A stretch of DNA of 64,000 nt, from positions 3,747 through 67,746 of the forward strand of contig CAYZIS010000013.1 in assembly GCA_964478545.1 (NCBI GenBank), given 5' to 3'. Below the pieces are notes generated by a model. The model did no database searches, was not told the DNA's origin, and was given only the letters and a program-made list of their open reading frames with translations. Origin of the DNA: an uncultured Thermodesulfobacteriota bacterium. GTDB lineage: Bacteria; Desulfobacterota; Anaeroferrophillalia; Anaeroferrophillales; Anaeroferrophillaceae. Positions 44,101-61,533 of the stretch are shown piece by piece; positions within the stretch are counted from its first letter, which is position 1; every line of letters starts with the position of its first letter. The position numbers and the translations under genes were made by a program.

Positions 44101-44356
44101 CGAGTACCGGCGTGACAGTCTGGACAAAACGGGTGAGTTTTACGATATCCAGGTTTCCGGGGACGGTGGCACCACCTGGCATGATTTGGATCGTTTTGCC
44201 GGCCCGGCCACTGATGGGGCTTATACCCTGGTCAGTTACGATATTTCCGCCTACTGTGCCTCGAATACCCAGATTCGATTCATCTCTTCGACAGCGAATA
44301 TGTCAGATGGAGACCTTGTCTGGATCGACAACGTCGAGATTTCCTGCAGCCCATGA
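41138..44356 (+). CDS. Giant PilX/GspK-like minor pilin adhesin (2x DNRLRE, unassigned alpha/beta domain, LamG, C-terminal beta-sandwich)
   Basis: HG|YILLPVIMM...ALAVAGAGLEHA; DRDAAIQE..RALYHF..SATLWL and KDAYV..SLLWFD..SAVLSLY; AHWKLDDGSG...WVHLAFTYDG...GLLDDVRIYDRA. Confidence 0.8.
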   Translation: MKKSALTNNHGYILLPVIMMFSLLAAIAFLVNRNNSVPLRMIVNDAQVDQALAVAGAGLEHAKWLVQDNVCGGDLILGATALGDHSYTATVDAAATTTNHYTLQPDRDAAIQETAPGQNFGNSTAMAVKTQAGDSRRALYHFVLSIIPEQTRVTSATLWLHVIDNDSLGTINLHPVNDTWIENWVTWNNIAASYDDQVLGRISPQLSGNSWVAINLTAMTQFWVNNPSANHGMMLISALEDSLESTYTSDDSGSLCPYLEISTAVGATSPVTITASATLDSGVIRTLSRVAYKAYQRSTTIILQPDAAAGKDAYVSIFWSSGNYGASDDLWVQDWDNDVDKVHYKSLLWFDISPIPIGSRVLSAVLSLYQNTPSTNGGLVEVHRVTSDWVEGDENGSSGAGATWDDRDTGLPWNTNGGDYDLIPIASTQLPAGIKDWFDWDITELVNGWINGAYDNNGLILLPGAYGTAVCFNSSDEGKKDAPLLTITYACECGDAGVAPQGSGRVLLVVDRPYNLTANEVIKKSLFEAWGYTVTLINDDDDFEDELAANDVVYVSESVNSSDIDTKLTNATIGVVNEEGYLNDELGIESDNSSNWPVGDSLEITDNSHYITVLFPHGVLPIYRADMQGLAVGSTPAPDLQTLANWSSWPTIATLDAGAAKAGGGTAAGRRVMLPIGRDGSVHWRYINNNGLLIVQRALQWAAGGELSFDPGLIAHWKLDDGSGTTAVDSVGGHDGTLAGDPNWVAGAFGGALDFDGSGDYVDVGHVLDGGVQQISVTAWIFKRDSGDDRVICKSSGTAIVDHIFSLGVADTTIRVRLGTTDNGGTDNYDGGLIPLNAWVHLAFTYDGAMLRIYKNGTETASYAVTGDMIASTLAVAIGNVNATDDRYWNGLLDDVRIYDRAMTAGEVVALTVGTFLDEFNNQSYGNNDGSLSWAAGWVEGGETTDPIDGDLQVVADISNYQLRLRDNGRNVMREANLSAFTFATLSFEYRRDSLDKTGEFYDIQVSGDGGTTWHDLDRFAGPATDGAYTLVSYDISAYCASNTQIRFISSTANMSDGDLVWIDNVEISCSP

Positions 44357-46377: not shown

Positions 46378-46760
46378 GTAAAAAAAAGATTATGCTGGTG
46401 GAGGATGATGTAAGCGTCTCCCGGATACTGCAGCTGACCATTGAACGTCAGGGGCATGAAGTGCACTGCGCCGGCAACGGGGAAGTGGCCCTTAAGGTCA
46501 TGGAGGAATACTGGCCTGAGGTGCTGATCACCGATATCAATATGCCCCGTATGTCCGGCCGGGATCTGTGCCTGCAGCTCAACGAGCGCTATCCGGATCG
46601 TAAGTTGATGATTGTGATCATGACCTCGATGACCGAGCGGCAGGAAAAGGAATGGATTGGTCAATTTCCCCGCATCCACTTTATGGAGAAACCGTTGAGC
46701 CCGAAACGCCTGCTGGCCCTGATTGAAACCACAGGTGATCCAACTGCTGAGAACGGCTGA
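46374..46760 (+). CDS. Single-domain response regulator
   Basis: LVEDD, TDINMPRMSG, EKPLSP. Confidence 0.93.
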   Translation: MSKKKIMLVEDDVSVSRILQLTIERQGHEVHCAGNGEVALKVMEEYWPEVLITDINMPRMSGRDLCLQLNERYPDRKLMIVIMTSMTERQEKEWIGQFPRIHFMEKPLSPKRLLALIETTGDPTAENG

Positions 46761-46770
46761 AGGGATTCCC

Positions 46771-48282
46771 ATGAAAAATCTGCTGCAAAAAATAGATTTT
46801 CCCTATTATCACCGGCTTTTTCACCGGCTCTATTCCACCGGGCTGAAGATGGCTTTCTGCGATCTCGAGGGCAAAGTGCTCTGGCCGGAGGATGGGAAAG
46901 TGGATGATGCCATGGAGTCAGCCCTGGCGGCGCTCTGCCCCGAGGACGATCTTTCCACCCTGTCTCCAGCTGCCGGAGGCGGCTGTTGGACAAGGGAATT
47001 GTCAGGCGGTCTGTATGTCTGCCCGGTACAGCTTATCGGTGAGCACCTGATCGGCTGGCTGGCAATCCTGGTTGATGAAATCCTCGGGGAAGACGAGGCC
47101 CAAAAGCTTAAGGGACTGGTGGATGATGTGGCTGCCGGCATCACCAGGGACTGTCGCTATGAACATGATCTTGATAATTTGGTTGATGAAGTGGCAAAGC
47201 GCTACGAGGAACTGCATCTTGTCTACGGTATGCGCGACCTGATCAAGGAATACCATTACAGCCAGGATATCTTCGAGCCTTTGCTTGAAAAATGTCATCT
47301 TGCTCTGGATACTTCTTTGACCGCTTTCATCTTTCCGGACCGGGATCTGCAGTTGTATCGGCAGGACCCGGCAAAAGATATAGATAACCTCGACCTTCTC
47401 CTGACCAGGATGAACAGTGAAATCTGCCGGTTTATTGCCAGCAGCAAGGAACCCCTGGTGCTCAATCGTGAGGATGATTCCCGCCGGAAGTACTTATGGT
47501 CCGGGGTGCCCTGGAAGATTATGGCTATCCCGATCATGGTTGAACGGAAGATGGTTGCCGCCATTATGATGCTGAGGGCGGCTGATCAGCCGGATTTCAG
47601 CAACAGTGACCGGAATATCAGCGAGGCAATTGCCGAACAGCTGGGCATTATTATCCTCAATCAGGTTATCTACGGCAAGCTGGAGAGTTTTTCCGAGGAG
47701 ATGGCCGCCACCATGATAGAATCCATTGATGCCAAGGATCCCTACACCCGGGGCCATTCAGACCGGGTGAACAGGTATTCCATGGCCATCGGCGAAGCCT
47801 TGAACTTCCCTGAACAGGACATGAAAAACCTCTACTGGTCTTCGCTGCTCCATGACCTGGGAAAGCTCGGGATTCCTGACCAGGTTCTGGGCAAGGTGGG
47901 AAAGCTGGATGAGGATGAATATACCATGATCAAGTCCCATTCCCAGTGCAGCCATGATATCATTGCCCACGTGAAGCGCCTGGCCCCGTCGCTGCGGGCC
48001 ATTCTCCATCACCATGAGCGATATGACGGCACCGGTTATCCTGATGAACTGGCCGGGTTGGCTATCCCCCTGCATGCCCGGATTATTGCCGTGGCGGATA
48101 CTTTTGATGCCATTACCAGTTCCCGTTCATATCGGCCCTCCCGTTTAGTCAGCGAAGCGATGGTGGAACTGCAGCGGGTCAAAGGCACCCAGCTTGATCC
48201 GGAACTGGTTGATTTGTGGCTGGATGTCTATACAACAAAATTTGCGCCGGCAGCCGGAACCCGGACCGGGGAGAAAGAGTAG
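46771..48282 (+). CDS. GAF-containing HD-GYP c-di-GMP phosphodiesterase
   Basis: KDPYTRGHSDRV, LHDLGKLG, HHERYDGTGYPDEL, IIAVADTFDAITS. Confidence 0.93.
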   Translation: MKNLLQKIDFPYYHRLFHRLYSTGLKMAFCDLEGKVLWPEDGKVDDAMESALAALCPEDDLSTLSPAAGGGCWTRELSGGLYVCPVQLIGEHLIGWLAILVDEILGEDEAQKLKGLVDDVAAGITRDCRYEHDLDNLVDEVAKRYEELHLVYGMRDLIKEYHYSQDIFEPLLEKCHLALDTSLTAFIFPDRDLQLYRQDPAKDIDNLDLLLTRMNSEICRFIASSKEPLVLNREDDSRRKYLWSGVPWKIMAIPIMVERKMVAAIMMLRAADQPDFSNSDRNISEAIAEQLGIIILNQVIYGKLESFSEEMAATMIESIDAKDPYTRGHSDRVNRYSMAIGEALNFPEQDMKNLYWSSLLHDLGKLGIPDQVLGKVGKLDEDEYTMIKSHSQCSHDIIAHVKRLAPSLRAILHHHERYDGTGYPDELAGLAIPLHARIIAVADTFDAITSSRSYRPSRLVSEAMVELQRVKGTQLDPELVDLWLDVYTTKFAPAAGTRTGEKE

Positions 48283-48597: not shown

Positions 48598-50307
48598 ATG
48601 CCGGCAGTTGTGAGCGCCATTTATAAACCCCAGAAGAGAATTGGTGATATTCTCCTGGAACGGGAGCTGGTTACCGAGGAGCAGCTCGCTGAGGTTTTCG
48701 TTCTGCAGAAAAAACTTGGCCGGCAGATCGGACAGATCCTGGTTGAGCAGGGGATGGTCGCCGATAAAGATCTGATGCGGGCCTTGGCCGAACAGTACAA
48801 CCTGTCCTATGTCTGGCTTCGTCCCGGGATTTATGATCCCGAAGCCCTGGCGCTGCTGGGCAAGAGAACTGCCCTGCGCCTGGAAATGATGCCGATCATC
48901 AAGGTTCGCTCTCACCTGTACGTGGCTACCAATACCCCCCAGGCAATTCCCGAACTGGATGAAATTGAGAGCCGAACCGGCCTGAAAGTTAAACCGGTGC
49001 TGGCCTGTCGTGCTGATATTATCAAGGCGATAAACGAGTCGTTCTCGGAGTTGAGCCATATATCTGACTTTGTCGGCGATCTGGAAGATGATTTTGAAGT
49101 GCTGGAAAATCAGAACCCTGATGATTTCACCGCTATTGATGAAATGGCCGAAGGCAGTCCGATTGTCAACCTGGTTAACTCGATTATCCAGCGGGCGGTG
49201 AAGGACAAGGCCAGTGATATCCACATCGAACCTTCACGGACCAAGTGCCGGGTGCGCATGCGGATAGACGGCGTCCTCTACGAGATCATGTCGCCGAAAA
49301 TCAAGATGCACGCGGCGCTGGTTTCACGGCTGAAGGTGATGGCAAATCTTGACATCGCCGAACGGCGGCTGCCCCAGGACGGCAGGATCCAGGTGAATAC
49401 CCGGGGCCGGGTTGTTGACCTCAGGTTCAGCTCCCTGCCCGGCATCTTCGGGGAAAAGGTTGTCCTGCGGGTGCTCGACAAGGACCAGTCCATTCTTGAG
49501 ATTGATAAACTGGGCATGAGCGAGCTGAATGAGCAGGAGTTTCGCCGGCTCCTCCAGCGCAGCAGCGGTCTTCTCCTGGTGACCGGGCCCACCGGCAGCG
49601 GCAAAACCACCACCCTCTACGCGGCTATTAATCACCTCAACAGCCTGGAAAAAAATATTGTTACCATCGAAGACCCGGTGGAATATCAACTGGATATTGT
49701 CAACCAGAATCAGGTAAAGGAAAGCATTGGTCTCGGATTCGCGATGATGCTCAAGCATATCCTCAGGCAGGATCCGGATATCATTATGGTGGGTGAAATT
49801 CGTGATCGGGAAACTGCCGAAATTGCCGTCCAGGCATCCCTGACCGGACACCTGGTCCTTTCCACCCTGCATACCAACAGCTGTGTCGGGGCTATCAGCC
49901 GGCTGTTGGAAATGGGGGTGGAGCCCTTCCTGCTTTCTTCGGCGTTAAGCGGGGTCATTGGTCAGCGGCTGGTGCGTACCGTCTGCCCGGCCTGCAAAAC
50001 CACCTATATCCCCGGCAATGAGATGGTTGAGAAAATGGGGATGGAAGCTGGTGGAGGTCTTAAATTTGCCCGGGGAAGAGGGTGCCCGGAATGCTATGAT
50101 TCCGGCTACAAGGGGCGTATTGCCATCCATGAAATCCTGGCTACGGATAGCAACCTCCAGCGGCTGATGAACCGTAATCCGACCAATGATGATCTGGAAC
50201 GCTATGTTACTGAACGGGAGCTGGTCACGATCTTCAAAGATGGTTATCAACGGGTGCGACAGGGCCTGACGACACCGGAGGAAATCAGCCGGATAGTGAA
50301 CCTCTGA
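48598..50307 (+). CDS. GspE/PilB-type assembly ATPase with MshEN domain
   Basis: RIGDILLERELVTEEQLAEVFVLQ and QIGQILVEQGMVADKDLMRALAEQ; LDIAERRLPQDG; GPTGSGKTTT; LRQDPD; CPACK/CPEC. Confidence 0.95.
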   Translation: MPAVVSAIYKPQKRIGDILLERELVTEEQLAEVFVLQKKLGRQIGQILVEQGMVADKDLMRALAEQYNLSYVWLRPGIYDPEALALLGKRTALRLEMMPIIKVRSHLYVATNTPQAIPELDEIESRTGLKVKPVLACRADIIKAINESFSELSHISDFVGDLEDDFEVLENQNPDDFTAIDEMAEGSPIVNLVNSIIQRAVKDKASDIHIEPSRTKCRVRMRIDGVLYEIMSPKIKMHAALVSRLKVMANLDIAERRLPQDGRIQVNTRGRVVDLRFSSLPGIFGEKVVLRVLDKDQSILEIDKLGMSELNEQEFRRLLQRSSGLLLVTGPTGSGKTTTLYAAINHLNSLEKNIVTIEDPVEYQLDIVNQNQVKESIGLGFAMMLKHILRQDPDIIMVGEIRDRETAEIAVQASLTGHLVLSTLHTNSCVGAISRLLEMGVEPFLLSSALSGVIGQRLVRTVCPACKTTYIPGNEMVEKMGMEAGGGLKFARGRGCPECYDSGYKGRIAIHEILATDSNLQRLMNRNPTNDDLERYVTERELVTIFKDGYQRVRQGLTTPEEISRIVNL

Positions 50308-50326
50308 GAGATGGACAGGCGGGCAG

Positions 50327-51445
50327 ATGGCGATTGACCTGGGCAAGAAAGCAGTTTCGGCCGGAAAGCAGGCAAAGTCTGGAAAGCCTTTATTTTCATT
50401 GCCACACCTCCGGGTTTCCAACAAGGCTCGCATCTTTTTTGTTCAGCGTCTGGCCCTGCTGCTCGAAACCGGAGGAGCTCTCTACCCAAGCCTTGAGTCC
50501 TTGCGGTCCCAAACCAGTGATGAATCCCTGGCGGCAGCCATCGGCGAGATGGCCGAGGATGTCAGGGAAGGCAAGGCGTTTTCCGAGGCGTTGCTTCATC
50601 ATCCAGAGATATTTTCCCCGACCTATGTGAGCTTGATCGGGGCTGCAGAGCGCGGCGGCTACCTTCCCAAAATCCTCTACCAGCTGCTGGAGATGGAAGA
50701 AAAACAGGAAAAAATGCGTTCCACCATTTTTTCCGCCATCTCCTACCCGGCTTTTCTGCTGGTTTTTTCCACAGCGGTGGTGATTTTCATCCTGGCGGTG
50801 GTTTTCCCCAAGTTTGCCGATATGTTTGCGGCCATCCACGATCAGTTGCCGATAACCACCCTGTTCCTCATGGCCGTGAGTGAGGTGATGCGGAAATTCT
50901 GGTTTCTCATTATTCCTGGCTTCGTGGTTTTCCTGATGGCTGTTGTTTATTGGTATAGGTCGGCCGCCGGGAAAAGGCTGATAGACAGGGCGAAATTGCG
51001 TCTGCCGGTGATCCGGGATGTGTTTGTCCAGATTTATCTCGTTCAGTTTTTACGGATGATGAGCCTGTCGCTGTCGGGGGGGGTGCCCCTGCTTGATATC
51101 CTTTCGGTCAGTCGGGGGATGATCGAAAACCAGTTATTTGATACTTTTATTGACAGCCTTGCCGCCCGGGTGACCGAAGGCCAGGGCCTGGCCATCGGCT
51201 TTGAAACGGAACCATTTATTCCCGCCATCACCAGGCAGATGATCAGGACCGGCGAGGAAAGCGGCACCCTGGCAATGGTGATGAGCAAAATCGCTGATTT
51301 TTATGAACAGGAAATTGAAAAAAAGCTGAAAACCTTTGAAAAAATTATCGAACCGCTGATGCTGGTGGTTATGGGGGTGGTCGTGGGGGTGATCGTTGCC
51401 TCGCTTATCCTGCCGATCTTTAAACTGAGCCGGGCAGTGCGCTGA
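50327..51445 (+). CDS. GspF/PilC platform protein
   Basis: AERGGYL, YPAFLLV, GEESGTL, IEPLMLVVMG. Confidence 0.93.
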   Translation: MAIDLGKKAVSAGKQAKSGKPLFSLPHLRVSNKARIFFVQRLALLLETGGALYPSLESLRSQTSDESLAAAIGEMAEDVREGKAFSEALLHHPEIFSPTYVSLIGAAERGGYLPKILYQLLEMEEKQEKMRSTIFSAISYPAFLLVFSTAVVIFILAVVFPKFADMFAAIHDQLPITTLFLMAVSEVMRKFWFLIIPGFVVFLMAVVYWYRSAAGKRLIDRAKLRLPVIRDVFVQIYLVQFLRMMSLSLSGGVPLLDILSVSRGMIENQLFDTFIDSLAARVTEGQGLAIGFETEPFIPAITRQMIRTGEESGTLAMVMSKIADFYEQEIEKKLKTFEKIIEPLMLVVMGVVVGVIVASLILPIFKLSRAVR

Positions 51446-51518: not shown

Positions 51519-51599
51519 TAAAAGTATTGAAAATATTAGAAAAAGAGAAAAACCAGACAGGGATGTCAGTTTAAACCCAACAACAAGAGGATGGGAGTT

Positions 51600-52127
51600 A
51601 TGAAAAATCGTATCGAATGGAATGAGAAAATGGGGAAAAGGGGTTTTACCCTGATTGAATTGTTGATCGTGGTGATTATCCTGGCCGTCCTGGCTGCGAT
51701 TGTCATCCCACAGTTCAGCAGTTCCACCAAGGATGCCCAGGAATCGGCGCTGGATACCAACTTGACTGAAATGCGCAATGCGGTGGAATTGTACTATCAC
51801 CAGCATGGCTCAGTCTATCCGGCTTTCGTTGGTGACGGGACCAATGCGGCGGAAACCGAGGCCACCCTCTTGAGCCAGCTTACTCGCTATACTGCTATGG
51901 ACGGGGCTGTCAGTGATACGAAAGATGCCACCAACAAGTATGGTCCATACCTGAAAAAACAGGAATTGCCCACCAACCCCATCGATGGCAATACCAACTG
52001 GGTCTTCAATGCTACTAATAAGGGCAGCCTTGCTGAGCCTGCCGCCGCAACCGCAGCTGGCGGCTGGTGGTATGATACTACCTCGGGGAAACTCATCTGT
52101 AATATCGTCGGGTATGAAAGCCGCTAA
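51600..52127 (+). CDS. Major (pseudo)pilin, GspG-like
   Basis: KRG|FTLIELLIVVIILAVLAAIVIPQF...MRNAVELYYHQHGSVYP. Confidence 0.9.
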   Translation: MKNRIEWNEKMGKRGFTLIELLIVVIILAVLAAIVIPQFSSSTKDAQESALDTNLTEMRNAVELYYHQHGSVYPAFVGDGTNAAETEATLLSQLTRYTAMDGAVSDTKDATNKYGPYLKKQELPTNPIDGNTNWVFNATNKGSLAEPAAATAAGGWWYDTTSGKLICNIVGYESR

Positions 52128-52142
52128 GCGGATAGATGCCTG

Positions 52143-52622
52143 ATGAGACGGGATGGATTTACCCTGATTGAGATTATGGTGGTCGTGGGGATCCTCAGTA
52201 TTGTCGCAATGCTGACGATCCCCACTTTTCATTCTGCCGGGGATGAAAAGAAAGTTGCCGGGGCCGCCCAGGAGATTGCTGATGCCCTGTGCTATGCCAG
52301 GAGCGAGGCCATGAAAATTGGACGGGAGTACCGGGTTGAGCTGGTGACCGCGGCAGAGCAGGTTGAGGTTTTTGACCATCAGGCCGATACTGTGGTCTAT
52401 CATCCAACCAGCAAGCAGCTCTATCGCCTTACCTTCGGTAGCGAGGGCATCTTTGCCGGCGTGGATCTCGAGTCGGTCAATGGCGGAACCGGCAACTTTC
52501 CGCTTGTTTTTACTGCCGACGGCAGGACTTCCACTGACTATGTTATTGCACTGGCCTACGCTGGCTACGAGGTGAAAGTTTTTGTCAACGCGCTTACCGG
52601 CCGGGTGACCACAGGCCCATGA
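52143..52622 (+). CDS. FimT/GspH-like minor pilin
   Basis: DG|FTLIEIMVVVGILSIV...ARSEAMK. Confidence 0.88.
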   Translation: MRRDGFTLIEIMVVVGILSIVAMLTIPTFHSAGDEKKVAGAAQEIADALCYARSEAMKIGREYRVELVTAAEQVEVFDHQADTVVYHPTSKQLYRLTFGSEGIFAGVDLESVNGGTGNFPLVFTADGRTSTDYVIALAYAGYEVKVFVNALTGRVTTGP

Positions 52623-52643
52623 GGAAATGGCAGGGAATGGATC

Positions 52644-53141
52644 ATGGGGAAACTTCAGGGCTATAGCCGCCGGGGACTGGCATTGCCAGCCGGGGATCGG
52701 GGTTTTTCCTATGTGGAAATACTGGTGGCAATAGTTCTGATCGCTGTCTGCCTTATCCCCGCCCTGAAATCCCTGAGCCCGGCATTTTTTGGCATTATGG
52801 AACGGGAGAAACTGGGCAGTAATTACTTGGCTGTTCGTTCAAAGTTGGAGGAGGTTCTGGCAGCTTCCTATAGAGATTTGGAGATCGCCGCCCAGGACGC
52901 TGGTGGTCCACTGGTGCCGTCCAGTCTTTCTGAACCTGCCTATATGACTTCGGATGGCCGACAGATCGTCCTGCAGGTGTATCTCTCCGGCTATGATGCA
53001 GATAATGACGATGGGGACAATGATCATTTTACCGGCACCAATCAGGGCATCCTCTGGGTCAAGGTGCAGGTGGATGGTTCGCCCGAGAGCCTGGAAACTC
53101 TCACCAGCATGTACGAGCAGGAAGGAAGTTTTAAACCATGA
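52644..53141 (+). CDS. PilV/GspI-like minor pilin
   Basis: RG|FSYVEILVAIVLIAV; contains a DADNDDGD loop. Confidence 0.8.
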   Translation: MGKLQGYSRRGLALPAGDRGFSYVEILVAIVLIAVCLIPALKSLSPAFFGIMEREKLGSNYLAVRSKLEEVLAASYRDLEIAAQDAGGPLVPSSLSEPAYMTSDGRQIVLQVYLSGYDADNDDGDNDHFTGTNQGILWVKVQVDGSPESLETLTSMYEQEGSFKP

Positions 53142-54325
53142 GAGCGATCACTCATCTTTTCAGCAACTGGAATATTCTCCAGTATGGCAATCCCGAGATA
53201 GATGACTATGCCAAGGGTCTGCTGGTGCTGGAAACCCGCCAGGGACTGTTTTCCTTGAGTCTGATCCTGGTTTTTCTGCTTGGTAGCGCCGCTATCATAA
53301 GCATTGCCCTCCATATGGACAGCTTTTATCTGCTGACCTATACCCCGCTGGCAGCCCTCTGCCTGCATATTTTACTCTCTTCATATCGGATCGACAGCAT
53401 CGAAGCCCAGCAGCTCCTGGCCATTGTTCTCCTGGTAGTCTGCAGCACAGCCTTTGTCCTCCTGGCCCACAAGACTGGCAAGTTCAGCCTGCCGGTGCTG
53501 GCTGGCATTGCCCTGCTTTTTACGGTTGTACCTCTTATGCCCTGGGGACTGCGGGAGGCCAGTGCGGCCTGCTCCCTTATTTATCTGGTGTTTACCTTGT
53601 CAACCTTAAGTGTCAGGGGACGTTTCGATTATGAAATTCTTTTGCTGCTGCAGTTTTTCATGATTAGTGCCGCTCTTATCTCCCTGACGGTTGTTTCCCG
53701 GAACAGCAGCGTTCGTCGCAAAGAAATTATCAGCATGTACAATCTCGAAAATGCCCATGCCAAGATGGCGAAACTTTCTTACCAGGATCCGCTGACCGGT
53801 GCCTGGAACCGCCGTTACCTGACGGAAAATTTTCGTTCCCAAGTGGCGAAATATCAGCGGGGTGGCAAACATTTTTCTTTCATCCTGGTTGATTTTAATA
53901 ATTTTAAATTGCTCAATGATACCTATGGCCATGATTACGGGGATATGGTGCTGCGGCATTTTTGCCAGGCGATAATGGAGAACCTGGCCCCGGATGATGT
54001 GCTGGTCCGTATGGGTGGGGATGAATTTGCGCTTATGATTGCCGCCGAACCCCGAAAGCGCCTTGCCGACGGCATCGGGCTTTTCAAAAAACGTCTGCAG
54101 GGGGAAACCGCTACCGGTGTCAATGAAGTGACGGTAACCTGCGGCTTGTTGAGCGTCTCCCCTGAACCTGATTCGGTTTTTAAGGATATTTACCAGGCGG
54201 CGGATAAGGCTATGTATCAAGGCAAAGGGGTCAAAAAGAACCAGATTATTGAAGTAGACAAGACTACTTCCGGGAGCTACATTATCGTTGATCTTGATGC
54301 GGAAATGACAGGAACAGAGAAATGA
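53138..54325 (+). CDS. Multi-TM GGDEF diguanylate cyclase without an RxxD I-site
   Basis: About 6 TM helices, DPLTGAWNRR, APDDVLVRMGGDEF; overlaps its neighbours by ATGA. Confidence 0.92.
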   Translation: MRAITHLFSNWNILQYGNPEIDDYAKGLLVLETRQGLFSLSLILVFLLGSAAIISIALHMDSFYLLTYTPLAALCLHILLSSYRIDSIEAQQLLAIVLLVVCSTAFVLLAHKTGKFSLPVLAGIALLFTVVPLMPWGLREASAACSLIYLVFTLSTLSVRGRFDYEILLLLQFFMISAALISLTVVSRNSSVRRKEIISMYNLENAHAKMAKLSYQDPLTGAWNRRYLTENFRSQVAKYQRGGKHFSFILVDFNNFKLLNDTYGHDYGDMVLRHFCQAIMENLAPDDVLVRMGGDEFALMIAAEPRKRLADGIGLFKKRLQGETATGVNEVTVTCGLLSVSPEPDSVFKDIYQAADKAMYQGKGVKKNQIIEVDKTTSGSYIIVDLDAEMTGTEK

Positions 54326-55458
54326 AATTTTCGGGTAGTATTTTAAATGGGAGTCTTGCCCGGGGTCGCGGAAATGGTCCGGGTCCCATCGGTTTTGATC
54401 TGGCGGCGGAAAAACTGAACTTGCTGCAGGTTGAGCGAGATGATGGCGGAGTGTTTGTGCGGGCTGCGGCGTCTGTTCCCTATCCTGATACCTGTGAAGA
54501 ACTGATTGCATCCCCCAAGGCCCTGCGCAAATTTGTTCTCGGCGCACTTAAATTAAAGCCTTTTAAAGGCAGGAACATTGTTACCTGCATGCCGAAAAAC
54601 AGTACAAAAATTTTCAACCTTAAATACCATCACCATCCACATGAAGATAATCTTGGGGCCATTATCGCCGGGGTGAAGGAGAAAATAGTCGGCGAGGTGG
54701 AAGATTATGTGATTGATTATCTGCCGACCCGTTATGAGAAAAAAACGGCAGATGAGCACTCCATCCTGGTGGCGGCGGCCAGGCGGGATGAAATCATCTC
54801 CTACCTGGAGCTGCTGCATGGAATAAGCCTTCAGGTCGATGCCATAGATATCGGGCCTTCGGCCCTGCGGCGCCTGGTCGCTCTGATGAATCCCGGTGAA
54901 GACTATCCATATGTATTATTGATCAACTTTGGCAGAAAAAAGACTTATTTGACCGTGACCACCGGGCTGCGTCTGATGATGGACCGCGAGGTTGATTTTG
55001 GCGAGCAGCTGCTGGTAGCCGAGTTGTGCCGGGCCCTGGACATCCCCGAAGAAAAAGCGCTCCATTTTCTCTACCATTACGGCATTGATTGGGATGTCAA
55101 CGCCAAGCAGGAGCAAAGGGATGATCAGAAGGCAAAAGAGATAATTTCGACGATTACCGAAATCCTGACTCCGGTTTTTATGAAGTTTGTTGTTGAGGTG
55201 AACAAGGTCCTTATCTACACGGCTTCTGAGACCAGGGGCGGGGCAATTAAAAAGATCTACCTGCTTGGCAGTGTAGCCCGTTATCCCATGGCGGCTTCAT
55301 TCCTTGCCAAGATGTTTACCATTTCGGTTGAAGTCCTGAATCCATTTTCAGAATTTTCATCCCGCAGTGACAGTGCCATTCCTGCCGACCTGGATCCCAT
55401 TGCCGGGATTGCTTTGGCCACCGGTTTTGCCCTGAGAGGGATGTATGACTATGCGTGA
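54322..55458 (+). CDS. pilM: PilM-type actin-like alignment protein
   Basis: IGFDLAAEKLNL, YVIDYL, AIDIGPSAL, LINFGRKKT, IYLLGSVA, ALATGFALRG. Confidence 0.85.
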   Translation: MKFSGSILNGSLARGRGNGPGPIGFDLAAEKLNLLQVERDDGGVFVRAAASVPYPDTCEELIASPKALRKFVLGALKLKPFKGRNIVTCMPKNSTKIFNLKYHHHPHEDNLGAIIAGVKEKIVGEVEDYVIDYLPTRYEKKTADEHSILVAAARRDEIISYLELLHGISLQVDAIDIGPSALRRLVALMNPGEDYPYVLLINFGRKKTYLTVTTGLRLMMDREVDFGEQLLVAELCRALDIPEEKALHFLYHYGIDWDVNAKQEQRDDQKAKEIISTITEILTPVFMKFVVEVNKVLIYTASETRGGAIKKIYLLGSVARYPMAASFLAKMFTISVEVLNPFSEFSSRSDSAIPADLDPIAGIALATGFALRGMYDYA

Positions 55459-56110
55459 AATTGATCTGGTTCCTGATGACTATCGGCAGTCACTGGGCCT
55501 CCGGCGAGTGCTGACTCAGTTTATCGCTGTTTTTTTCTGTCTGGTCCTGATTGTTGCCGGTGGTCGTTTGTGGCTTGGACAATTGATGCGCTCAGAGAAA
55601 AGGATGGTTGAGAAACTGGGGGTTAGTGAGAGTGCCCTCCTGAACAAACAGAAAAGCATAGCCGATCTGCGGGAACAAAAAAGAGGTTTAACCGAACGGC
55701 TGGCGGTTCTGGATATGCTGCGTGGCGGCCCCCAGGCCGTCCGCTTATTTGAAGTTGTGGATCGATCTATCAACCCGTCAATCTGGTTTGACGACTGGAA
55801 GTTTGTCCGGGAAGCGAAAAAAACGGAAAAAAAACCGCATGGCCAGCTCCAGGCAGGATATTTTATCGTTATTCCGGCGGAAAAAAAACAGGGGAGTGGG
55901 GGTGAAGTCTGGCGGAAGAACATGCATATGGATATCTCCGGGCAGGCGCTCAACCATGCCTCACTGGCTGATTTCGTCCGCAAGCTGCTGGTCCAGCCGG
56001 AAATTGATGACGTCAAGGTGATTTCAACCTTAACCCGCCAGTATCAGGGGGCTGAAGTCATCAATTATGATCTGGTGGTGCTGGTCCATCCCAAAAGGAA
56101 GAAATTGTGA
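55445..56110 (+). CDS. pilN: PilN domain protein
   Basis: MREIDLVP N-terminus, TM, coiled coil, ISGQA. Confidence 0.8.
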   Translation: MTMREIDLVPDDYRQSLGLRRVLTQFIAVFFCLVLIVAGGRLWLGQLMRSEKRMVEKLGVSESALLNKQKSIADLREQKRGLTERLAVLDMLRGGPQAVRLFEVVDRSINPSIWFDDWKFVREAKKTEKKPHGQLQAGYFIVIPAEKKQGSGGEVWRKNMHMDISGQALNHASLADFVRKLLVQPEIDDVKVISTLTRQYQGAEVINYDLVVLVHPKRKKL

Positions 56111-56667
56111 TTGATCATCTGTTGAAACGGGGAATTCCTCCGAGGATCATGTATCTTGTTCTGGTTTCTATTGTCCTGCTTACCGGTTTGGCTTCCTATC
56201 TCTATCTCTATAAAAAACCCCTGGCCGAGTATGACAGGCTGAAACATAATCATATCCTCCTGCAGGGTAAGACGGGAAACAAGTCCCAGGTGCAGGCGGA
56301 TCTTGATCGGCTTACAAAAGAAATACAGGGCATTCGGCAGGAGCTTCAGGGCGATACCCCTGCATTGTCAGTGAATGCCCTGGTTGCCTATGCCATTGAA
56401 AAGATTGACGTCATTTCCGACCGGCATCAGGTTCAATTTGTCAGTGTCAAACCCGGAACCGGCAATCGGGTGTTCCAGTTTGAAGAGATTCCTTTTGTGG
56501 TTGAAGTAGCCGGGGATTATTTCAGCCTCTACGGATGGCTGTATGATCTTGAGAAGGAATTGGGTCCCATGGTGGTAAAAGAGTATGAGCTGAAGCCAGA
56601 TAACCGGACGAAAAAACTGACGATGAAACTGGAGATAGCTTCCTATCGACCGGTGGAGATGAAATGA
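56107..56667 (+). CDS. pilO: PilO-type protein
   Basis: TM, coiled coil, EIPFVVEVAGDYFSLYGWLYDLE. Confidence 0.8.
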   Translation: MIDHLLKRGIPPRIMYLVLVSIVLLTGLASYLYLYKKPLAEYDRLKHNHILLQGKTGNKSQVQADLDRLTKEIQGIRQELQGDTPALSVNALVAYAIEKIDVISDRHQVQFVSVKPGTGNRVFQFEEIPFVVEVAGDYFSLYGWLYDLEKELGPMVVKEYELKPDNRTKKLTMKLEIASYRPVEMK

Positions 56668-57032
56668 TGGCAAAACTTATCAGCAGTATCCTGCTGGCGG
56701 CCAGCCTTTTTATTGCCATACCGGCTTTTTCCACCGAGGTGGGGATGCCGTTGCACCTAAGCCGGGATCCTTTCGCCCACCCGGTGTTGGTACAAGTTTC
56801 TGCACCATCACCACCAACGGTGGTGAAGGTTGATGACGCAGATGTCTGGAAGGAGAAAATCCATCTGCAGGCCATTATGATTACCCGTAAGTGGACGATT
56901 GCCAACGTTAATGGGAAGCTGCTCACTCCCGGGGAGAGCGTTGAGGGGTATAAGCTGGTCAAGGTGATGGAACGAAAGGTTCTGTTCAGGAAGGATGGCA
57001 GAGATATCCTGGTGAGGATGGATAATGAGTGA
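56664..57032 (+). CDS. PilP/MshK-like small exported protein
   Basis: Signal peptide, RDPF, LQAIMI...ANVNGKLLTPGESVEGYKLVKV. Confidence 0.7.
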   Translation: MMAKLISSILLAASLFIAIPAFSTEVGMPLHLSRDPFAHPVLVQVSAPSPPTVVKVDDADVWKEKIHLQAIMITRKWTIANVNGKLLTPGESVEGYKLVKVMERKVLFRKDGRDILVRMDNE

Positions 57033-57148
57033 ATAAAAACAGTGAAAAAATGGTGCGAGGTTTGGGGGGAAATCATCAATAGACTTTTTGTCTGAATCTG
57101 GCAAGCTTGTCATTATCAGGATGAATCCGGCAATCGGGTAAAAAATGC

Positions 57149-57175
57149 TAAACATAGTCCGGTTTATGCCGATGA
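57149..57175 (+). promoter_or_regulatory. sigma-28-like promoter of the GH153-secretin gene
   Basis: TAAA-N15-GCCGATGA. Confidence 0.65.
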
Positions 57176-57302
57176 GATTGTTATGGTATGTGAAAAAGTA
57201 TCAGAATTACTAAACTTTTCACTCAATTGCTTTTCCGGATGGTTTCATGTGCCGGCTGAATGGTGTCCGGAATAAAAAGTTGTTTTGTTACTGTGGACTG
57301 AG

Positions 57303-59792
57303 ATGAAACTGAAATTGACACTAAGATTTGTGCTGTTGACCATCTGTATCTGGGGATGTATTGATTCCCTGGTGATTTCGGCTGGCTATGCCCGAGCCGA
57401 TGACCAGGTGATCGGGGCCCAGATTTCAGTGCTTGAACAGAAGACGCCGGCAGAGCTGCAGAGCTTTTTTGCTCGGCTGCGGAACAGCGGTTTCAATACC
57501 GTCGTTCTGAGGGTGTTTCACAACCGCTGTGACCGCTATCACCGGTTTGATCATTCAACGAGCACAACACCGCCGAAAGAAGGGGTCTATTTCCAAACCT
57601 CCCAGGTGCCGGTGGTCAACAACCTGCTGCCTGATGTCTGTCGTGCGGCCCATGCCGAAGGATTGCGGATTTTCGCCTGGATGACGACCCTGCAGGCTAA
57701 TTACAGTTACCGTGATTTGCCCCGGGTCTACGCTTACGATTTTCTCCACAACCGTTATCAGCAAACCGGTGCTCTTGATCCAGCGGCTGAAAAAAACCGG
57801 CAGTTTCTGACGGCGTTATACCGTGACCTGGCTGCCAATCCCATTGACGGCATTCTCTTCCAGGATGACCTCCAGCTCAAACATGCCGAGGGGTTCCATC
57901 GCGATCCAGCTGGCAAGTCATTTGTCCCCAACGGGGAAACGCTGTATCGTTATGGTGAGGAGGGGAAGCGGATTACTGATTATCGACCGGCCTTCTGGAA
58001 GTGGAATGAACAAAAAGCATCTTCTCTCCAGTGCCTGGCTAATTCCATTATGGAGGCCTGCCGGCAGGTGAAACCTGGCTTGCGGTTTGCTCAGAATATT
58101 CATTATGAACTTTTGCTGAAACCGCGCTGGGGTCGGGCTTGGTTCTCCCAGACGCCTGAGTCGCTGGTTTCTTCAGCCGCCAATTATTTTTTTGTCATGT
58201 CTTTTCAGCGGCAAATCCGTCAGGAACTTGACGTTGTTTCGGATAAGGAACTTGATGAAGTCATGAACCGGATGTTTTGTTCCAACCCGCTTTTGGACCA
58301 GAACCAGCATCAGCTGATTTTCAAACTTCAGGTGACAGACTGGCAGAGCGGTGAACCTGAATCACCCAAACGAATGGCCCGGATGCTCCGCCTGTTGAAA
58401 CAGTCAAATCATCTATCGGCGATCATGACCCCCTATAATAAAAATTATTTTGCCCGGGAAATAGGAAGTTTTGCCGCTCGGAAAGAGGTTGTCGTTACTC
58501 CCGCAGCAATGCCGGCGGCAGACGTTCATCCCGTCGTTGTCAAGCCTTCCCGGAAACCTGCTAAAGCCAGTTCTGCTCCGGCAAAAGAGAAGAAGAACCT
58601 GGTTACCATGACTTTTCGTGATACTGATATAGCTGAAGTTTTTGAGATGTTGGCAAAAGGATATCGGGTTAACATCCTTATGGGTAAAGGGGTGGATGGT
58701 GATGTCTCATGCAGCCTTTATGATATGAAACTGGATGATGCCATCTACACCATTGCCGAGGCGGTGGGCTGTGGGGTTGAAATGGTAGAGGGTAGCTATC
58801 TGATTCTTCCCAAGGATCAGCTCAGCGGCTTGGGCGAGGGCCGTCGGGGTGTTGAACTATTGACCTATAAATCGCAATTCGTGGCTCCTGACAATCTCAA
58901 GGAGGCACTCACTGATCATGTTACCAAAAATGCTAAAATTACCATTGTTAAAGAAAACAATATGCTGGTAGTTCAGGATACCAAAGAATCCATTTCCCGC
59001 ATTAAACAACTTTTGAAAGACCTTGACCGGCAGCCGGCCCAGGTCCTGATCGAGGCTAAAATTCTGGAGATAACTCTTGATAATTCCGAGACGTTCGGCT
59101 TAGATTGGAAACGGTTGTTTACCGTGGGAGGAGCTGATGCCACTATTGGCCTCCAGGGGTTTGCCAACCGGACTGCGACCGGTTTTGTGGCCAGCCTGTT
59201 TGACAGTAAAAAAATTGATATTGTTCTGAATGCCCTGAGCACCAAGGGCAGGTTGCAGACCCTTTCCACCCCAACACTTCTGGCGTTGGAAAACCAGGAA
59301 GCTGAAGTGATGATTGGCGGCCGGCAGGGTTACAAAGTAACCACTACCATAAATCAGGTAACCTCGGAAAGTATTGAATTCCTTGATTCCGGCGTCATCC
59401 TCAAGGTAACGTCATCCATCGATAACCAGGGACGAGTACAGATGCACATTCATCCGGAGGTGAGCACTGGTTCCTTCCAGGATGGCATTCCTTCCCAGAA
59501 CACCACCCTGGTGACCACCGATCTCCTGGCTGATGATGGCCAGACAATCTTTATCGGCGGCTTGATCAGAGAAAAGACTTATCATTCAAAACAGGGGATT
59601 CCAATACTTGGTGATATCCCCCTGGTGGGCAGGGTATTTTCCAGTACTGAAGAGACCCTTGGCAAAAGTGAAACCATTATCCTGATTACTCCTCATGTTA
59701 TCAGCAATGGATATGCTGGAGCCAATCAGAATGAAGTGCGAAAGGCGGCTGAAGTGGAAGATGAGATAGCGATGAGAAGCCCGAAGAGATGA
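57303..59792 (+). CDS. Secretin (GspD/PilQ/MshL-like) N-terminally fused to a PgaB-like GH153/GHL13 glycoside hydrolase domain
   Basis: Signal peptide; GFNTVVLRVF, GVYFQT..PV, GLRIFAWMTTL, PIDGILFQDD, WFSQ; Pro/Ala/Lys linker; VTMTFRDTDIAEVF, QVLIEAKILE, LENQEAEV, GIPILGDIPLVGRVF. Confidence 0.88.
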   Translation: MKLKLTLRFVLLTICIWGCIDSLVISAGYARADDQVIGAQISVLEQKTPAELQSFFARLRNSGFNTVVLRVFHNRCDRYHRFDHSTSTTPPKEGVYFQTSQVPVVNNLLPDVCRAAHAEGLRIFAWMTTLQANYSYRDLPRVYAYDFLHNRYQQTGALDPAAEKNRQFLTALYRDLAANPIDGILFQDDLQLKHAEGFHRDPAGKSFVPNGETLYRYGEEGKRITDYRPAFWKWNEQKASSLQCLANSIMEACRQVKPGLRFAQNIHYELLLKPRWGRAWFSQTPESLVSSAANYFFVMSFQRQIRQELDVVSDKELDEVMNRMFCSNPLLDQNQHQLIFKLQVTDWQSGEPESPKRMARMLRLLKQSNHLSAIMTPYNKNYFAREIGSFAARKEVVVTPAAMPAADVHPVVVKPSRKPAKASSAPAKEKKNLVTMTFRDTDIAEVFEMLAKGYRVNILMGKGVDGDVSCSLYDMKLDDAIYTIAEAVGCGVEMVEGSYLILPKDQLSGLGEGRRGVELLTYKSQFVAPDNLKEALTDHVTKNAKITIVKENNMLVVQDTKESISRIKQLLKDLDRQPAQVLIEAKILEITLDNSETFGLDWKRLFTVGGADATIGLQGFANRTATGFVASLFDSKKIDIVLNALSTKGRLQTLSTPTLLALENQEAEVMIGGRQGYKVTTTINQVTSESIEFLDSGVILKVTSSIDNQGRVQMHIHPEVSTGSFQDGIPSQNTTLVTTDLLADDGQTIFIGGLIREKTYHSKQGIPILGDIPLVGRVFSSTEETLGKSETIILITPHVISNGYAGANQNEVRKAAEVEDEIAMRSPKR

Positions 59793-60003: not shown

Positions 60004-60090
60004 GCCGGAGTGGTGAAATTGGTAGACGCACGGGACTCAAAATCCCGCGGGGGCGACCCCGTCTCGGTTCGATTCCGAGCTTCGGCACCA
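60004..60090 (+). tRNA. tRNA-Leu(CAA)
   Basis: GCCGGAG acceptor stem, TGGTAGAC D-arm, CGGGA-CTCAAAA-TCCCG anticodon arm, long variable arm, GGTTCGATTCC, encoded CCA. Confidence 0.97.
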
Positions 60091-60099
60091 TTAATATCA

Positions 60100-60900
60100 A
60101 GGGGTTACAGTGTGATATCTGTAACCCCTTTTTTAATATTTTCTTTGCCTGTGTAATTACGGCAAAAAATATCAATTTCTTATCAGTTGATTGACCGGTA
60201 CCTTTATACCTTTTTCCCAGTACATCCATTGCCGATTGAATATGTTTTCCGTTCTGGTGGCTGTATCGTGCAACCATTTGCAAAGTTTTGTGACCTGAAA
60301 TTCTTTGCACTGTTGGGAGGTCAATACCAGCCTGGACAAGATGAGTGATGGCTGTATGTCGTAAAGTGTGCGGGACAATTTGCTTCGGATCAAGATCGGC
60401 AGCCTTAACCACTTCCCTGAAGGCGTATTCTGGCCATTTGATATGACCACATCTTGATCGAGATGATGGCAACAGCCACTCTTGCTTGGCATCTGCTGCC
60501 TTGAGATATTCTGCAAGATATTCAGCCAGATTTTTTTATTGGTTGCTCGTGTGTTCCTGCCTTGGCATGTGGGATGTAAATAACTCGACGCTGTAAATCA
60601 ATATTTTCAATCCTAACGGAAAGGATCTCAAACTTTCGCATGGATGTTGCCAGGGCGATTTTGATAAAGGGGTAAATGAAAGGGGCTTGATGTTCTGATG
60701 CTGCCCTCAGTAGTTTTGACACTTGGGGAGTTGTGAGATAAATAATCCTTCCACTATCTTCTTTCAGCCTATTAATTTTGGCTGGATGGTGATTGATCCA
60801 CTTCCATTCTACAGACTTAGAAAAGAGATGTGACAGCGCGGCCAACTCTCTGTTGACCGTACTGTTTGTGGGCCTTCTTCCTTATGCAGAAAAAATATGG
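60100..60900 (-). pseudogene. Frameshifted tyrosine integrase oriented toward tRNA-Leu
   Basis: Pieces in different frames: NSTVNRELAALSHLF, ALATSMRKFEIL, HTLRHTAITHL...GHKT...ARY. Confidence 0.85.
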
Positions 60901-61230: not shown

Positions 61231-61449
61231 CACGTTTCATTACCTGCCCTACACTAATTTTTCACGGGGTAGGTGTTTCACCTTCATTGACACAGAGGGC
61301 TTGTGGTTTATACGGGTTGTTGCTATATGAATATTTTAATTAAGTTTTTATTTAGTAACAAAAAAGATTCGGGTACGCAATGTCTGACCTGAAATCAAGT
61401 CTACCCACGGTCGCTGTAGCGCCTTCGCAGTATTTAATAGGAACCTTAT

Positions 61450-61533
61450 ATGACAACCAACTTCTCCCAGACTGCGGCCTATATCTGGTCGATGGCCGAT
61501 CTGCTGCGCGGTGATTTTAAGCAGTCCCAACAG
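61450..61533 (+). pseudogene. N-terminal remnant of type I RM methyltransferase HsdM
   Basis: MTTNFSQTAAYIWSMADLLRGDFKQSQ, after which the similarity breaks. Confidence 0.75.

Follow-up and report, generated by a model that had tools for sequence, protein, structure and literature searches.

In the 64,000-nt stretch of DNA analysed here (hereafter the window), one gene joins a whole glycosidase-like domain to a secretin within a single polypeptide. Its N-terminal half is a (beta/alpha)8 barrel of the GHL13 type, related to PgaB's C-terminal domain, and its C-terminal half is a compact secretin encoded at the end of an operon for a type IV filament machine. The fusion is a genuine, selected single gene. 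As for its role, the reading that we favour, to which we assign a probability of roughly 45%, is that the secretin would carry a tethered ring of peptidoglycan-binding or peptidoglycan-cutting domains by which the pore is anchored or inserted; this reading draws on comparisons of sequence and gene context.

Architecture of the fusion protein

Translation of the gene (Table 1) gives 829 codons with zero stops, in keeping with the single uninterrupted frame of the original prediction. The open reading frame was listed from 57285 to 59792, with an upstream TTG as its start; the ATG at 57303 is the start also called in both orthologues (91% and 77% identity). A Pfam search of the 829-aa protein recovered GHL13 (PF14883) at aa 50-367 (E 7.6e-22; 78 bits, the cut-off being 27 bits), Secretin_N (PF03958) at aa 525-580 (E 2.4e-8) and Secretin (PF00263) at aa 644-800 (E 2.5e-40), together with a weak match to N0 (aa 437-482, E 0.057), and the PgaB profile of NCBIfam is matched over its C-terminal half only (profile positions 291-593). 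The layout first read from the letters—signal peptide, GHL13 TIM barrel, linker and compact secretin—is therefore borne out by Pfam and the structural model, the PIDGILFQDD motif lies exactly where it had been placed, and the proposed assignments to PF14883 and to PF00263/PF03958 are all recovered.

In the model, the Sec signal peptide region comprises a hydrophobic helix (aa 2-22) followed by a low-confidence stretch (aa 21-32), with cleavage probably occurring after A-R-A at aa 30-32. A WGC triplet (aa 17-19) is conserved in three orthologues and fits the usual lipobox poorly. The linker, predicted to be disordered over about 35 aa, falls below a pLDDT of 50 over aa 397-428 and leads into an N0 domain modelled with a beta-alpha-beta-beta-alpha-beta-beta pattern at pLDDT above 90, whose sequence matches among solved structures include the N0 of PilQ (4ar0) and HofQ (2y3m). 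The secretin half matches structures of GspD and PilQ with E-values from 1e-25 to 1e-29 and lacks a separate signal peptide. It displays the features by which a secretin is recognised, namely the PF00263 domain, an N0 with one Secretin_N domain and type IV filament genes alongside.

Table 1. Features of the fusion gene and its locus (positions are those of the window)
Feature	Coordinates	Strand	Evidence
334-aa Asp-rich prepilin-type protein and 1072-aa GspK/PilX-like minor pseudopilin	40137..44356	+	Pfam, N-termini
Histidine kinase, response regulator, GAF/HD-GYP phosphodiesterase	44515..48282	+	Pfam
GspE/PilB-type ATPase with MshEN, and GspF/PilC platform protein	48598..51445	+	T2SSE E 1e-139, MshEN, T2SSF
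Three prepilin-type (pseudo)pilins: GspG-like, GspH-like and one other	51591..53141	+	N_methyl, GspH matches
GGDEF diguanylate cyclase within operon	53138..54325	+	Pfam E 9.8e-35
pilM, pilN, pilO/gspM-like alignment genes	54322..56667	+	Pfam PilM_2, PilN, PilO; NCBIfam
Small exported protein, 122 aa, PilP/GspC-HR-like	56664..57032	+	Signal peptide read from sequence; weak T2SSB, CdsD_C
Leader, 270 nt, PilP-like gene to fusion gene	57033..57302	+
Fusion gene, 829 aa: signal peptide, GHL13, linker, N0, N1, secretin	57303..59792	+	Translation, Pfam, NCBIfam
Predicted signal peptide region, aa 1-32	57303..57398	+	Read from sequence; model helix
GHL13-type (beta/alpha)8 glycosidase-like domain, aa 33-392	57399..58478	+	Pfam, PgaB profile, AF2, Foldseek
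PIDGILFQDD motif, aa 180-189	57840..57869	+	Alignments to 4p7l and 6au1
Flexible Pro/Ala/Lys-rich linker, aa 393-431	58479..58595	+	pLDDT, divergence vs P0002
N0 domain, aa 433-503	58599..58811	+	Model, structure matches, weak Pfam N0
N1 / Secretin_N domain, aa 517-574	58851..59024	+	Pfam PF03958, model
Secretin core, aa 580-800, then C-terminal helix aa 805-825	59040..59702	+	PF00263, structures, model
tRNA-Leu(CAA) and terminator-like hairpin, end of locus	60004..60130	+	ARAGORN, Rfam, hairpin

Occurrence and selection of the fusion

The identical protein is present on five contigs, and the search for the same fusion in other genomes that had been proposed yielded the two orthologues, P0001 (91%) and P0002 (77%), which come from two other assemblies and sit among the same neighbours in a conserved operon of pilM-N-O, the small exported gene and the secretin. 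Between the protein and P0002 the linker has only 38% identity and differs in length by 14 aa in frame, the reading frame being kept. Selection on the glycosidase-like domain is purifying (dN/dS about 0.17, against 0.05-0.08 in the secretin parts), and an adjacent but unfused gene pair was found in none of the loci of relatives examined. The earlier view that these are not two genes joined by a lost stop codon accordingly agrees with the five contigs, the frame kept in two diverged orthologues and the signature of selection.

Among the best 150 matches from 1.84 billion representatives, both halves occur in one protein in this cluster only, consistent with the supposition that the architecture is unique. 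The fusion is represented by three sequence variants in one 50%-identity cluster among these 1.84 billion representatives, and so far belongs to one small uncultured lineage. The taxonomic labels of the relatives read Deltaproteobacteria or Thermodesulfobacteriota, with Xanthomonadaceae given for one MAG.

Relationship of the glycosidase-like domain to PgaB

In a profile search against PgaB structures, the domain was matched with E 2e-43, and its AF2 model (pLDDT 91.4) has PgaB's C-terminal domain as its best Foldseek match (E 3e-20, TM 0.72-0.75). Mutagenesis of Bordetella PgaB has identified D474 as catalytic and D326, D328, D364 and E585 as dPNAG-binding (PMC5933820). Alignments to 4p7l and 6au1 place D188 of the fusion protein on D474, within an FQDD motif that is invariant across the clade described below and the PgaB-type matches; Q187 stands for H473 of PgaB, a Q that is likewise found in the PgaB-architecture homologues P0067, P0070 and P0074. 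The four binding residues are replaced in the fusion protein by S42, L44, N74 and I305, respectively, whereas the same alignment shows all four kept in these three homologues. The fusion protein further has R70, N74, R78, Y227, W232, Y268, E269, Q304 and E308, which PgaB-type proteins lack.

The two proteins thus share the fold, the DGILF(H/Q)DD motif with its catalytic Asp and a periplasmic location, but the CE4 domain and the pgaABCD operon of the PgaB system accompany the fusion protein in neither case. A CE4 deacetylase domain (PF01522) was not detected by Pfam in the fusion protein; the scanned ORFs of the window include no pgaA/C/D or GT2 gene, as had been remarked for the pga genes; and no gene for an exopolysaccharide deacetylase, synthase or porin lies beside the orthologues or the unfused clade members. 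Of the hallmarks of GH153, then, the fold and the catalytic Asp are present, and the dPNAG residues, the CE4 fusion and the pga operon are absent. Hence, the original designation as a PgaB-like GH153 domain holds for the fold, the homologous motif and the catalytic Asp, but the further label of a dPNAG hydrolase goes too far, as the binding residues kept in true PgaB-architecture homologues have been replaced. From these sequence features we infer that the fusion protein is probably not a dPNAG-processing equivalent of PgaB.

A deacetylase-less clade as the source of the domain

The nearest relatives of the domain form what we define here as a deacetylase-less, radA-linked GHL13 clade, with the signature R70, N74, D77-R78, T128, Y227, F231-W232, Y268-E269, Q304 and E308 and no CE4. 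The fusion domain is 52-55% identical to clade members and keeps 51 of the 54 positions that are at least 95% conserved in 59 unfused members, the retained motif residues including D188, D189, E196 and the clade-specific Y268-E269. In six of seven loci, radA immediately precedes the gene of the nearest unfused relatives; in three of these six, all of one lineage (L003, L004 and L005), that gene also follows mreBCD-pbp2-rodA. Related clade members are often joined to TPR/BamD-like modules. Sequence and neighbourhood together trace the glycosidase-like domain back to a periplasmic housekeeping clade without deacetylase, from which it was recruited. It departs from the setting of that clade, a stand-alone or TPR-fused gene after radA, in being part of a secretin gene within a pilus operon. 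The radA/elongasome neighbourhood as a clue to a cell-wall function is guilt by association; to our knowledge, radA has no cell-wall role.

A remnant of radA in the leader before the fusion gene, as a trace of copying, was sought by tblastn, which gave matches at chance level only, and radA was found nowhere in the window. The composition of the operon (GC about 0.47-0.53 across it) gives no sign of recent foreign origin. A search of the open-access literature returned nothing on the deacetylase-less GHL13 clade or on enzyme-bearing secretins.

Distant relatives of the clade include enzymes of peptidoglycan. Two clade members score above the gathering threshold of GHL10 (P0041 at 39 bits and P0016 at 35 bits; cut-off 27.9), the family to which E. 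coli DigH belongs (E 6e-136), and the clade profile aligns with DigH by hhalign with a probability of 94% and E 1.2e-7, the Asp motif being in register; the fusion domain itself gave no Pfam GHL10 (PF02638) match at E <=1. Cwp19 is the second-best Foldseek match (E 3e-13, TM 0.55-0.61). Denuded peptidoglycan glycans are broken down by DigH (YddW) of E. coli (PMC12288456), and C. difficile Cwp19 acts as a lytic transglycosylase on peptidoglycan (PMC6016235). Both are related TIM barrels and, likewise, envelope enzymes acting on GlcNAc-containing glycans; however, the similarity is distant, PgaB-C (E 2e-43) being far nearer in sequence to the domain than DigH is (E 1e-7), and any activity of the clade on peptidoglycan is putative.

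The filament operon

The fusion gene closes a series of genes whose order is conserved in seven loci (L001, L002, L006, L007, L008, L012 and L013), and the protein is the outer-membrane secretin of a type IV filament machine under c-di-GMP regulation, in which features of the T2SS are combined with those of type IVa pili. The GGDEF gene is conserved in L001, L006, L007 and L008, and the MshEN c-di-GMP-binding motif of the ATPase scores 54 bits in NCBIfam against a cut-off of 38. Further upstream, the giant 1072-aa pseudopilin bears CBM96, disaggregatase-repeat and LamG domains, and the region encoding it and the Asp-rich prepilin has homologues in L007 and L008. Carbohydrate-binding and c-di-GMP genes are abundant in the locus, which would also fit an exopolysaccharide-linked role. 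The small exported gene precedes the secretin in the same seven loci, and its 122-aa product is a candidate partner of the N0 domain.

The leader between this gene and the fusion gene is 93% identical in L001, and the corresponding spacing in the unfused relative L006 is only 21 nt. A riboswitch in the leader (e.g., for c-di-GMP) was considered and dropped, there being no Rfam match at E <=1; the sole Rfam match in the window is the tRNA. Promoters and terminators predicted around the fusion gene were no more numerous than after shuffling of the sequence; a convincing hairpin was seen only behind the tRNA.

What sister secretins carry before N0

Sister secretins from the same operon type are 48-63% identical in the secretin half. 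The closest of them (63%, in L006) is a protein of 448 aa in the same operon without any glycosidase-like domain, and two others have an OmpA-like (P0091) or an AMIN (P0090) module before N0, again in the same operon type. These PilQ-/T2SS-type secretins (P0090, P0091, P0092, P0096 and P0099) resemble the fusion protein in having an N0, one N domain and the secretin core, in following pilM-N-O and a PilP-like gene, and in bearing a tethered module before N0; but AMIN, which PilQ carries, and the OmpA-like, SPOR and SH3b modules are small binding domains, whereas the fusion protein bears a TIM barrel of 360 aa with its catalytic motif intact. When N-terminal extensions of 100 aa or more were compared in 55 relatives, OmpA was found in 10, SH3b and TPR in three each, and SPOR, AMIN and VWA in one each; none of the 55 extensions is a glycoside hydrolase. 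Peptidoglycan-binding modules are not the only occupants of the slot, since 36 of the 55 extensions have no recognisable domain and some have TPR or VWA.

Possible roles of the tethered domain

Under the favoured reading, oligomerisation of the secretin would bring a dozen or more flexibly tethered glycosidase-like domains level with the cell wall. There they would bind the peptidoglycan's glycan backbone and probably cut it locally, with Asp188 and clade-specific residues such as Glu269 acting together in cleavage. The pore would thereby be fixed to the sacculus, and a gap for the filament machine would be opened or maintained. The ancestral active site seems to be kept, given the 51 of 54 retained clade positions with D188, D189, E196 and Y268-E269 among them. 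Among the roles suggested originally, anchoring to an envelope glycan is the best supported, as peptidoglycan-binding modules fill the same slot in sister secretins, and the handling of a polymer through the pore is without support, as there are no polysaccharide synthesis genes nearby.

A further-reaching form of this scheme, which we regard as unlikely on the sequences at hand, is a self-inserting pore, in which the ring of catalytically active domains would first open a hole for itself in the sacculus and afterwards keep the pore fixed there. Still bolder would be a version in which the ring processes a polysaccharide in transit through the type IV filament machine.

A doubtful alternative, close to the view first put forward, is that the tethered domain is a lectin or endo-glycosidase whose target is a GlcNAc-type polysaccharide (PNAG-like or other), periplasmic or secreted, which it would trim or clear at the foot of the channel, or that it would couple matrix remodelling to c-di-GMP-controlled assembly of the filament. 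The proximity to PgaB-C in both sequence and structure and the preserved catalytic Asp argue for it, and the GGDEF, HD-GYP and MshEN ATPase genes together with the CBM96/LamG pseudopilin would suit a biofilm or adhesion setting; but the loss of the four dPNAG-binding residues tells against it, as do the absence of deacetylase, synthase and porin genes from the window and from the surroundings of orthologues and unfused clade members, and the fact that sister systems work without such a domain or with peptidoglycan-binding modules.

Quite improbable, in our estimate, is a structural or assembly role without glycan chemistry, with the TIM barrel serving as a spacer, a docking site or a pilotin-like targeting module. 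It could account for the roughly twofold faster evolution of the domain relative to the secretin parts; PgaB-C was long taken for a binding domain, the TPR/BamD-like modules often joined to clade members act via protein contacts, and the conserved WGC might be a lipid anchor that makes the protein self-piloting, as in liposecretins. Against this stand the retention of all motif residues and of the 51 of 54 conserved positions, and the departure of WGC from the usual lipobox. The notion that the fusion is an artefact—an assembly chimera, a lost stop between adjacent genes or a pseudogenised relic—might be prompted by its unique architecture and by the metagenome-type assembly of the window, but is already essentially refuted by the five identical copies, the two diverged orthologues that keep frame across a variable linker with an in-frame indel, the purifying selection on both halves, the lack of relatives with the two genes adjacent and unfused, and the want of a separate signal peptide, for which reason the secretin half could not function if separated.

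Comparable machines and implications

Several trans-envelope machines have cell-wall enzymes, e.g., VirB1 in the T4SS and EtgA/IpgF in the T3SS, and in FlgJ the flagellar rod cap is fused to a muramidase, which couples the enzyme covalently to a structural subunit. ExeA/GspA are peptidoglycan anchors of T2SS secretins, and how type II secretion systems and type IV pili cross and are anchored in peptidoglycan is only partly understood, the known solutions being small modules (AMIN), accessory proteins (ExeA/OutB) and separate lytic enzymes. We know of no case in which the cell-wall enzyme of such a machine is part of the secretin polypeptide. OutB is reported to be a peptidoglycan anchor of a T2SS secretin (PMC9239104). 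The likeness of the fusion protein to FlgJ, VirB1, EtgA, IpgF, ExeA and OutB lies in an envelope-spanning apparatus equipped with dedicated peptidoglycan binding or cleavage; none of them is homologous to the fusion, and the enzymes FlgJ, VirB1, EtgA and IpgF have a lysozyme-like or SLT fold.

A whole glycosidase-type domain on each secretin subunit would represent a new, covalent solution to this problem. One type of operon in which the slot before N0 may hold nothing, or an OmpA-like, AMIN, SPOR, SH3b, TPR, VWA or GHL13 module, lends itself to domain swaps. If the self-inserting pore were to prove true, it would be the first secretin with enzymatic activity, and it would provide the first function, that of a peptidoglycan glycan hydrolase, for the widespread deacetylase-less GHL13 clade. 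More generally, the comparisons made here set a large clade that is routinely mis-annotated as "PgaB" apart from the true dPNAG hydrolases and point to a role for it in the cell wall.

Architecture of the fusion protein and its locus

The fusion gene translates as 829 codons with zero stops; in the ORF listing its frame can be extended upstream to a TTG at 57285, and both orthologues, namely those in L001 (a JGI metagenome) and L002 (the NCBI MAG GCA_011682545.1), begin at the codon corresponding to the ATG at 57303. By all testable criteria the product belongs to the secretin family, and its N-terminal domain to Pfam GHL13. The NCBIfam models PilQ, GspD and MshL match the C-terminal half of the protein, and from the NCBIfam PgaB model only the C-terminal part (profile positions 291–593) matches residues 48–369. 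Since the PIDGILFQDD motif, the domains and the layout read from a full-length AlphaFold model are all in agreement, the sequence description in the original prediction, i.e., an uninterrupted frame joining a signal peptide, a TIM barrel, a linker and a secretin, proved accurate.

Features of the fusion protein, its locus and the comparison loci (nucleotide positions in the window unless a locus is named; aa, residues of the fusion protein)
Feature	Position	Strand	Evidence or remark
Asp-rich prepilin-type protein (334 aa), then 1072-aa protein	40137-44356	+	start of locus 40137-59792
Histidine kinase, response regulator, GAF/HD-GYP protein		+	follow in order
GspE/PilB ATPase with MshEN c-di-GMP-binding motif, then GspF/PilC		+	follow in order
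Three (pseudo)pilins, then GGDEF protein		+	follow in order
PilM, PilN, PilO, small exported PilP-like protein, secretin (fusion)		+	follow in order
c-di-GMP control genes (kinase/regulator/GAF-HD-GYP trio, MshEN ATPase, GGDEF)	44515-54325	+
Non-coding leader	57033-57302		270 nt
Fusion gene	57303-59792	+	last gene of locus
PIDGILFQDD motif	57840-57869
GHL13 (PF14883)	aa 50-367		Pfam E 7.6e-22, 78 bits vs cut-off 27
N0	aa 437-482		weak Pfam match
Secretin_N	aa 525-580		Pfam
Secretin	aa 644-800		Pfam E 2.5e-40
Signal-peptide helix	aa 2-22		AlphaFold model
TIM barrel	aa 33-392		AlphaFold model, confident
Disordered stretch	aa 397-428		AlphaFold model, pLDDT <50
N0	aa 433-503		AlphaFold model
N1	aa 517-574		AlphaFold model
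Secretin core	aa 580-800		AlphaFold model
Terminal helix	aa 805-825		AlphaFold model
tRNA-Leu(CAA) and strong hairpin	60004-60130	+	locus end
tRNA and putative variable island with degraded integrase	60004-63854
Integrase, two fragments	about 60150-60845	-
Schlafen/AlbA_2-HATPase_c_4-HTH protein	61930-63258		then HsdR N-terminal fragment
coaD-like overlap	L003 11222-11410		189 nt
coaD-like overlap	L005 7101-7289		189 nt
coaD-like overlap	L017 2858-2901		44 nt

The locus encodes a type IV filament system under c-di-GMP control that combines traits of type II secretion systems and type IVa pili. Control by c-di-GMP is built into the locus itself: the MshEN motif of the ATPase scores 54 bits (cut-off 38), and the GGDEF gene, located after the pilins and before pilM, also occurs as a conserved member of the locus in L001, L006, L007 and L008. 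The 1072-aa protein combines a GspK/PilX-like pseudopilin N-terminus with two CBM96 modules, a disaggregatase repeat and a LamG domain, and the 334-aa prepilin-type protein, encoded 5' of it with a 4-nt overlap, carries many Asp-rich, calcium-site-like repeats; the two resemble a giant complex of lectin type at the filament tip. The system recurs in L006, a "Deltaproteobacteria" MAG (PilM 61% identical), and in the Gammaproteobacteria MAGs L007 and L008 (PilMNO about 35% identical), which have homologous giant CBM96 proteins and the GGDEF gene in common with it.

The leader upstream of the fusion gene has only a 21-nt counterpart in the L006 operon, whose secretin is unfused; it shares 93% identity with that of L001 and shows only patchy conservation in L002. 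No radA remnant, no riboswitch and no Rfam match of any kind were found in it, promoter-like sites are not enriched, and there is no clear promoter. A compositional anomaly was likewise sought and none was found. Past the tRNA lies what looks like a variable island, occupied in the window by the split integrase, the Schlafen gene and the HsdR fragment, whereas the corresponding position in L001 has RhuM together with a type I restriction-modification system.

Affinities of the GHL13 domain

The closest relatives of the domain (52–55% identity) are stand-alone proteins of about 416–470 aa, and the more distant ones (about 33–37%) either stand alone too or are joined to TPR/BamD-like repeats; all of them lack PgaB's CE4 deacetylase. 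In six of the seven loci examined (the exception being L011) the gene of this clade directly follows radA, with stop and start sometimes overlapping, and the pair is conserved across Deltaproteobacteria/Thermodesulfobacteriota-type genomes (L003, L004, L005, L009, L010 and L017). Within one lineage (L003, L004 and L005) it also comes directly after mreB-mreC-mreD-pbp2-rodA. In L003, L005 and L017 the 3' end of the stand-alone gene runs into a coaD-like gene of opposite orientation, so the C-terminal tails, which are poorly conserved, may be over-called. Many clade proteins are annotated as "PgaB" despite having neither the deacetylase domain nor the dPNAG-binding residues.

The clade is clearly homologous to PgaB's C-terminal domain (profile E 2e-43; Foldseek E 3e-20, TM 0.72–0.75), and the catalytic D474 of Bordetella PgaB (PMC5933820) is conserved as D188 in the fusion. 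The neighboring H473 is replaced by Q187, a change also seen in true PgaB-architecture homologues. In contrast, the dPNAG-binding residues D326, D328, D364 and E585 (PMC5933820), all four of which are present in the PgaB-architecture matches of the same alignment, correspond to S42, L44, N74 and I305 in the fusion, and the clade has invariant residues of its own (R70, N74, R78, Y227, W232, Y268-E269, Q304 and E308). Thus, from the original proposal of a PgaB-like GH153 domain, the homology to GHL13 and to the PgaB catalytic motif stands, but because the substrate-binding residues are replaced, the deacetylase partner is missing and the operon context differs, the GH153/PgaB assignment was rejected.

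A second set of affinities points to peptidoglycan enzymes. Clade relatives exceed the GHL10 gathering score, and an alignment of the clade profile with Escherichia coli DigH has a probability of 94% and brings the Asp motifs into register; DigH is an enzyme that breaks down denuded glycans of peptidoglycan (PMC12288456). The second-best structural match of the fusion's own domain in Foldseek is Cwp19, a peptidoglycan lytic transglycosylase (PMC6016235). Nevertheless, this domain does not match the Pfam GHL10 model, and its similarity to PgaB-C is much closer than that to DigH. That closeness, together with the biofilm-type gene content of the locus, would fit the processing or binding of an exopolysaccharide, a role made less likely by the loss of the dPNAG residues and by the lack of any polysaccharide synthase among the scanned ORFs of the window, beside the two orthologues or near the clade genes in the seven loci examined. 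A non-catalytic structural or targeting role of the domain appears less probable still.

A variable slot in front of N0

In L006, which has the same operon, the secretin is 63% identical over residues 421–823 and, at 448 aa, runs from its signal peptide directly into N0. Other close relatives (48–56% identity) bear an extra N-terminal module, which is OmpA-like in P0091, P0092, P0096 and P0099, AMIN or AMIN-like in P0090 and P0088, and VWA in P0134; P0091 and P0090 lie within the same PilN-PilO-small-secretin operon. Among 55 relatives with extensions of at least 100 residues, the slot holds OmpA-like (10), bacterial SH3 (3), TPR (3), SPOR (1), AMIN (1) or VWA (1) modules and nothing recognizable in 36, with no glycoside hydrolase in any of the 55. 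Fifteen of the 19 recognized modules are of types generally known to bind peptidoglycan. Across this operon family (P0088–P0232; L012, L013 and L014) the slot is thus highly variable, ranging from empty to OmpA-like, AMIN, SPOR, SH3b, TPR or VWA.

A full HMMER scan of 1.84 billion proteins, representing about 15 billion, recovered, among the 150 matches listed, a single cluster matching both halves, that of the fusion itself; the remaining 149, down to 190 bits, match one half each. Even if its halves were only distantly related, a fusion would exceed this floor, below which very remote ones could fall. The searchable library yielded no publication on either the clade or secretins that carry an enzyme.

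Reality of the fusion

As far as sequence allows, a chimeric assembly, the loss of a stop codon and a relic in decay can all be excluded, because the identical protein is recorded on five contigs, orthologues at 91% (L001) and 77% (L002) identity have the same upstream genes, the frame is maintained through a linker whose identity drops to 38% with a 14-residue length difference, Nei-Gojobori dN/dS between the window and L002 reaches 0.17 in the GH domain but 0.05 in N0-N1 and 0.08 in the secretin core, the GH domain retains 51 of the 54 positions conserved at ≥95% in 59 unfused relatives, and the secretin half, unlike the unfused L006 secretin, has no separate signal peptide. The protein is thus a single exported chain under selection, in which the barrel keeps the conserved site of its clade and is joined by a flexible tether in front of N0.

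Proposed role

The fusion would work most like the AMIN- or OmpA-decorated secretins, with the difference that the binding module is replaced by an enzyme-type domain. Oligomerization would bring a dozen or more barrels near the cell-wall layer, and our preferred reading, to which we assign a probability of about 0.45, is that their target is the peptidoglycan glycan backbone, which they would bind and probably cleave locally. The barrels would then stand in for the AMIN/OmpA-like modules as an anchor and add a hole-making activity, an arrangement whose logic resembles that of FlgJ or of the dedicated lytic transglycosylases found in other machines.
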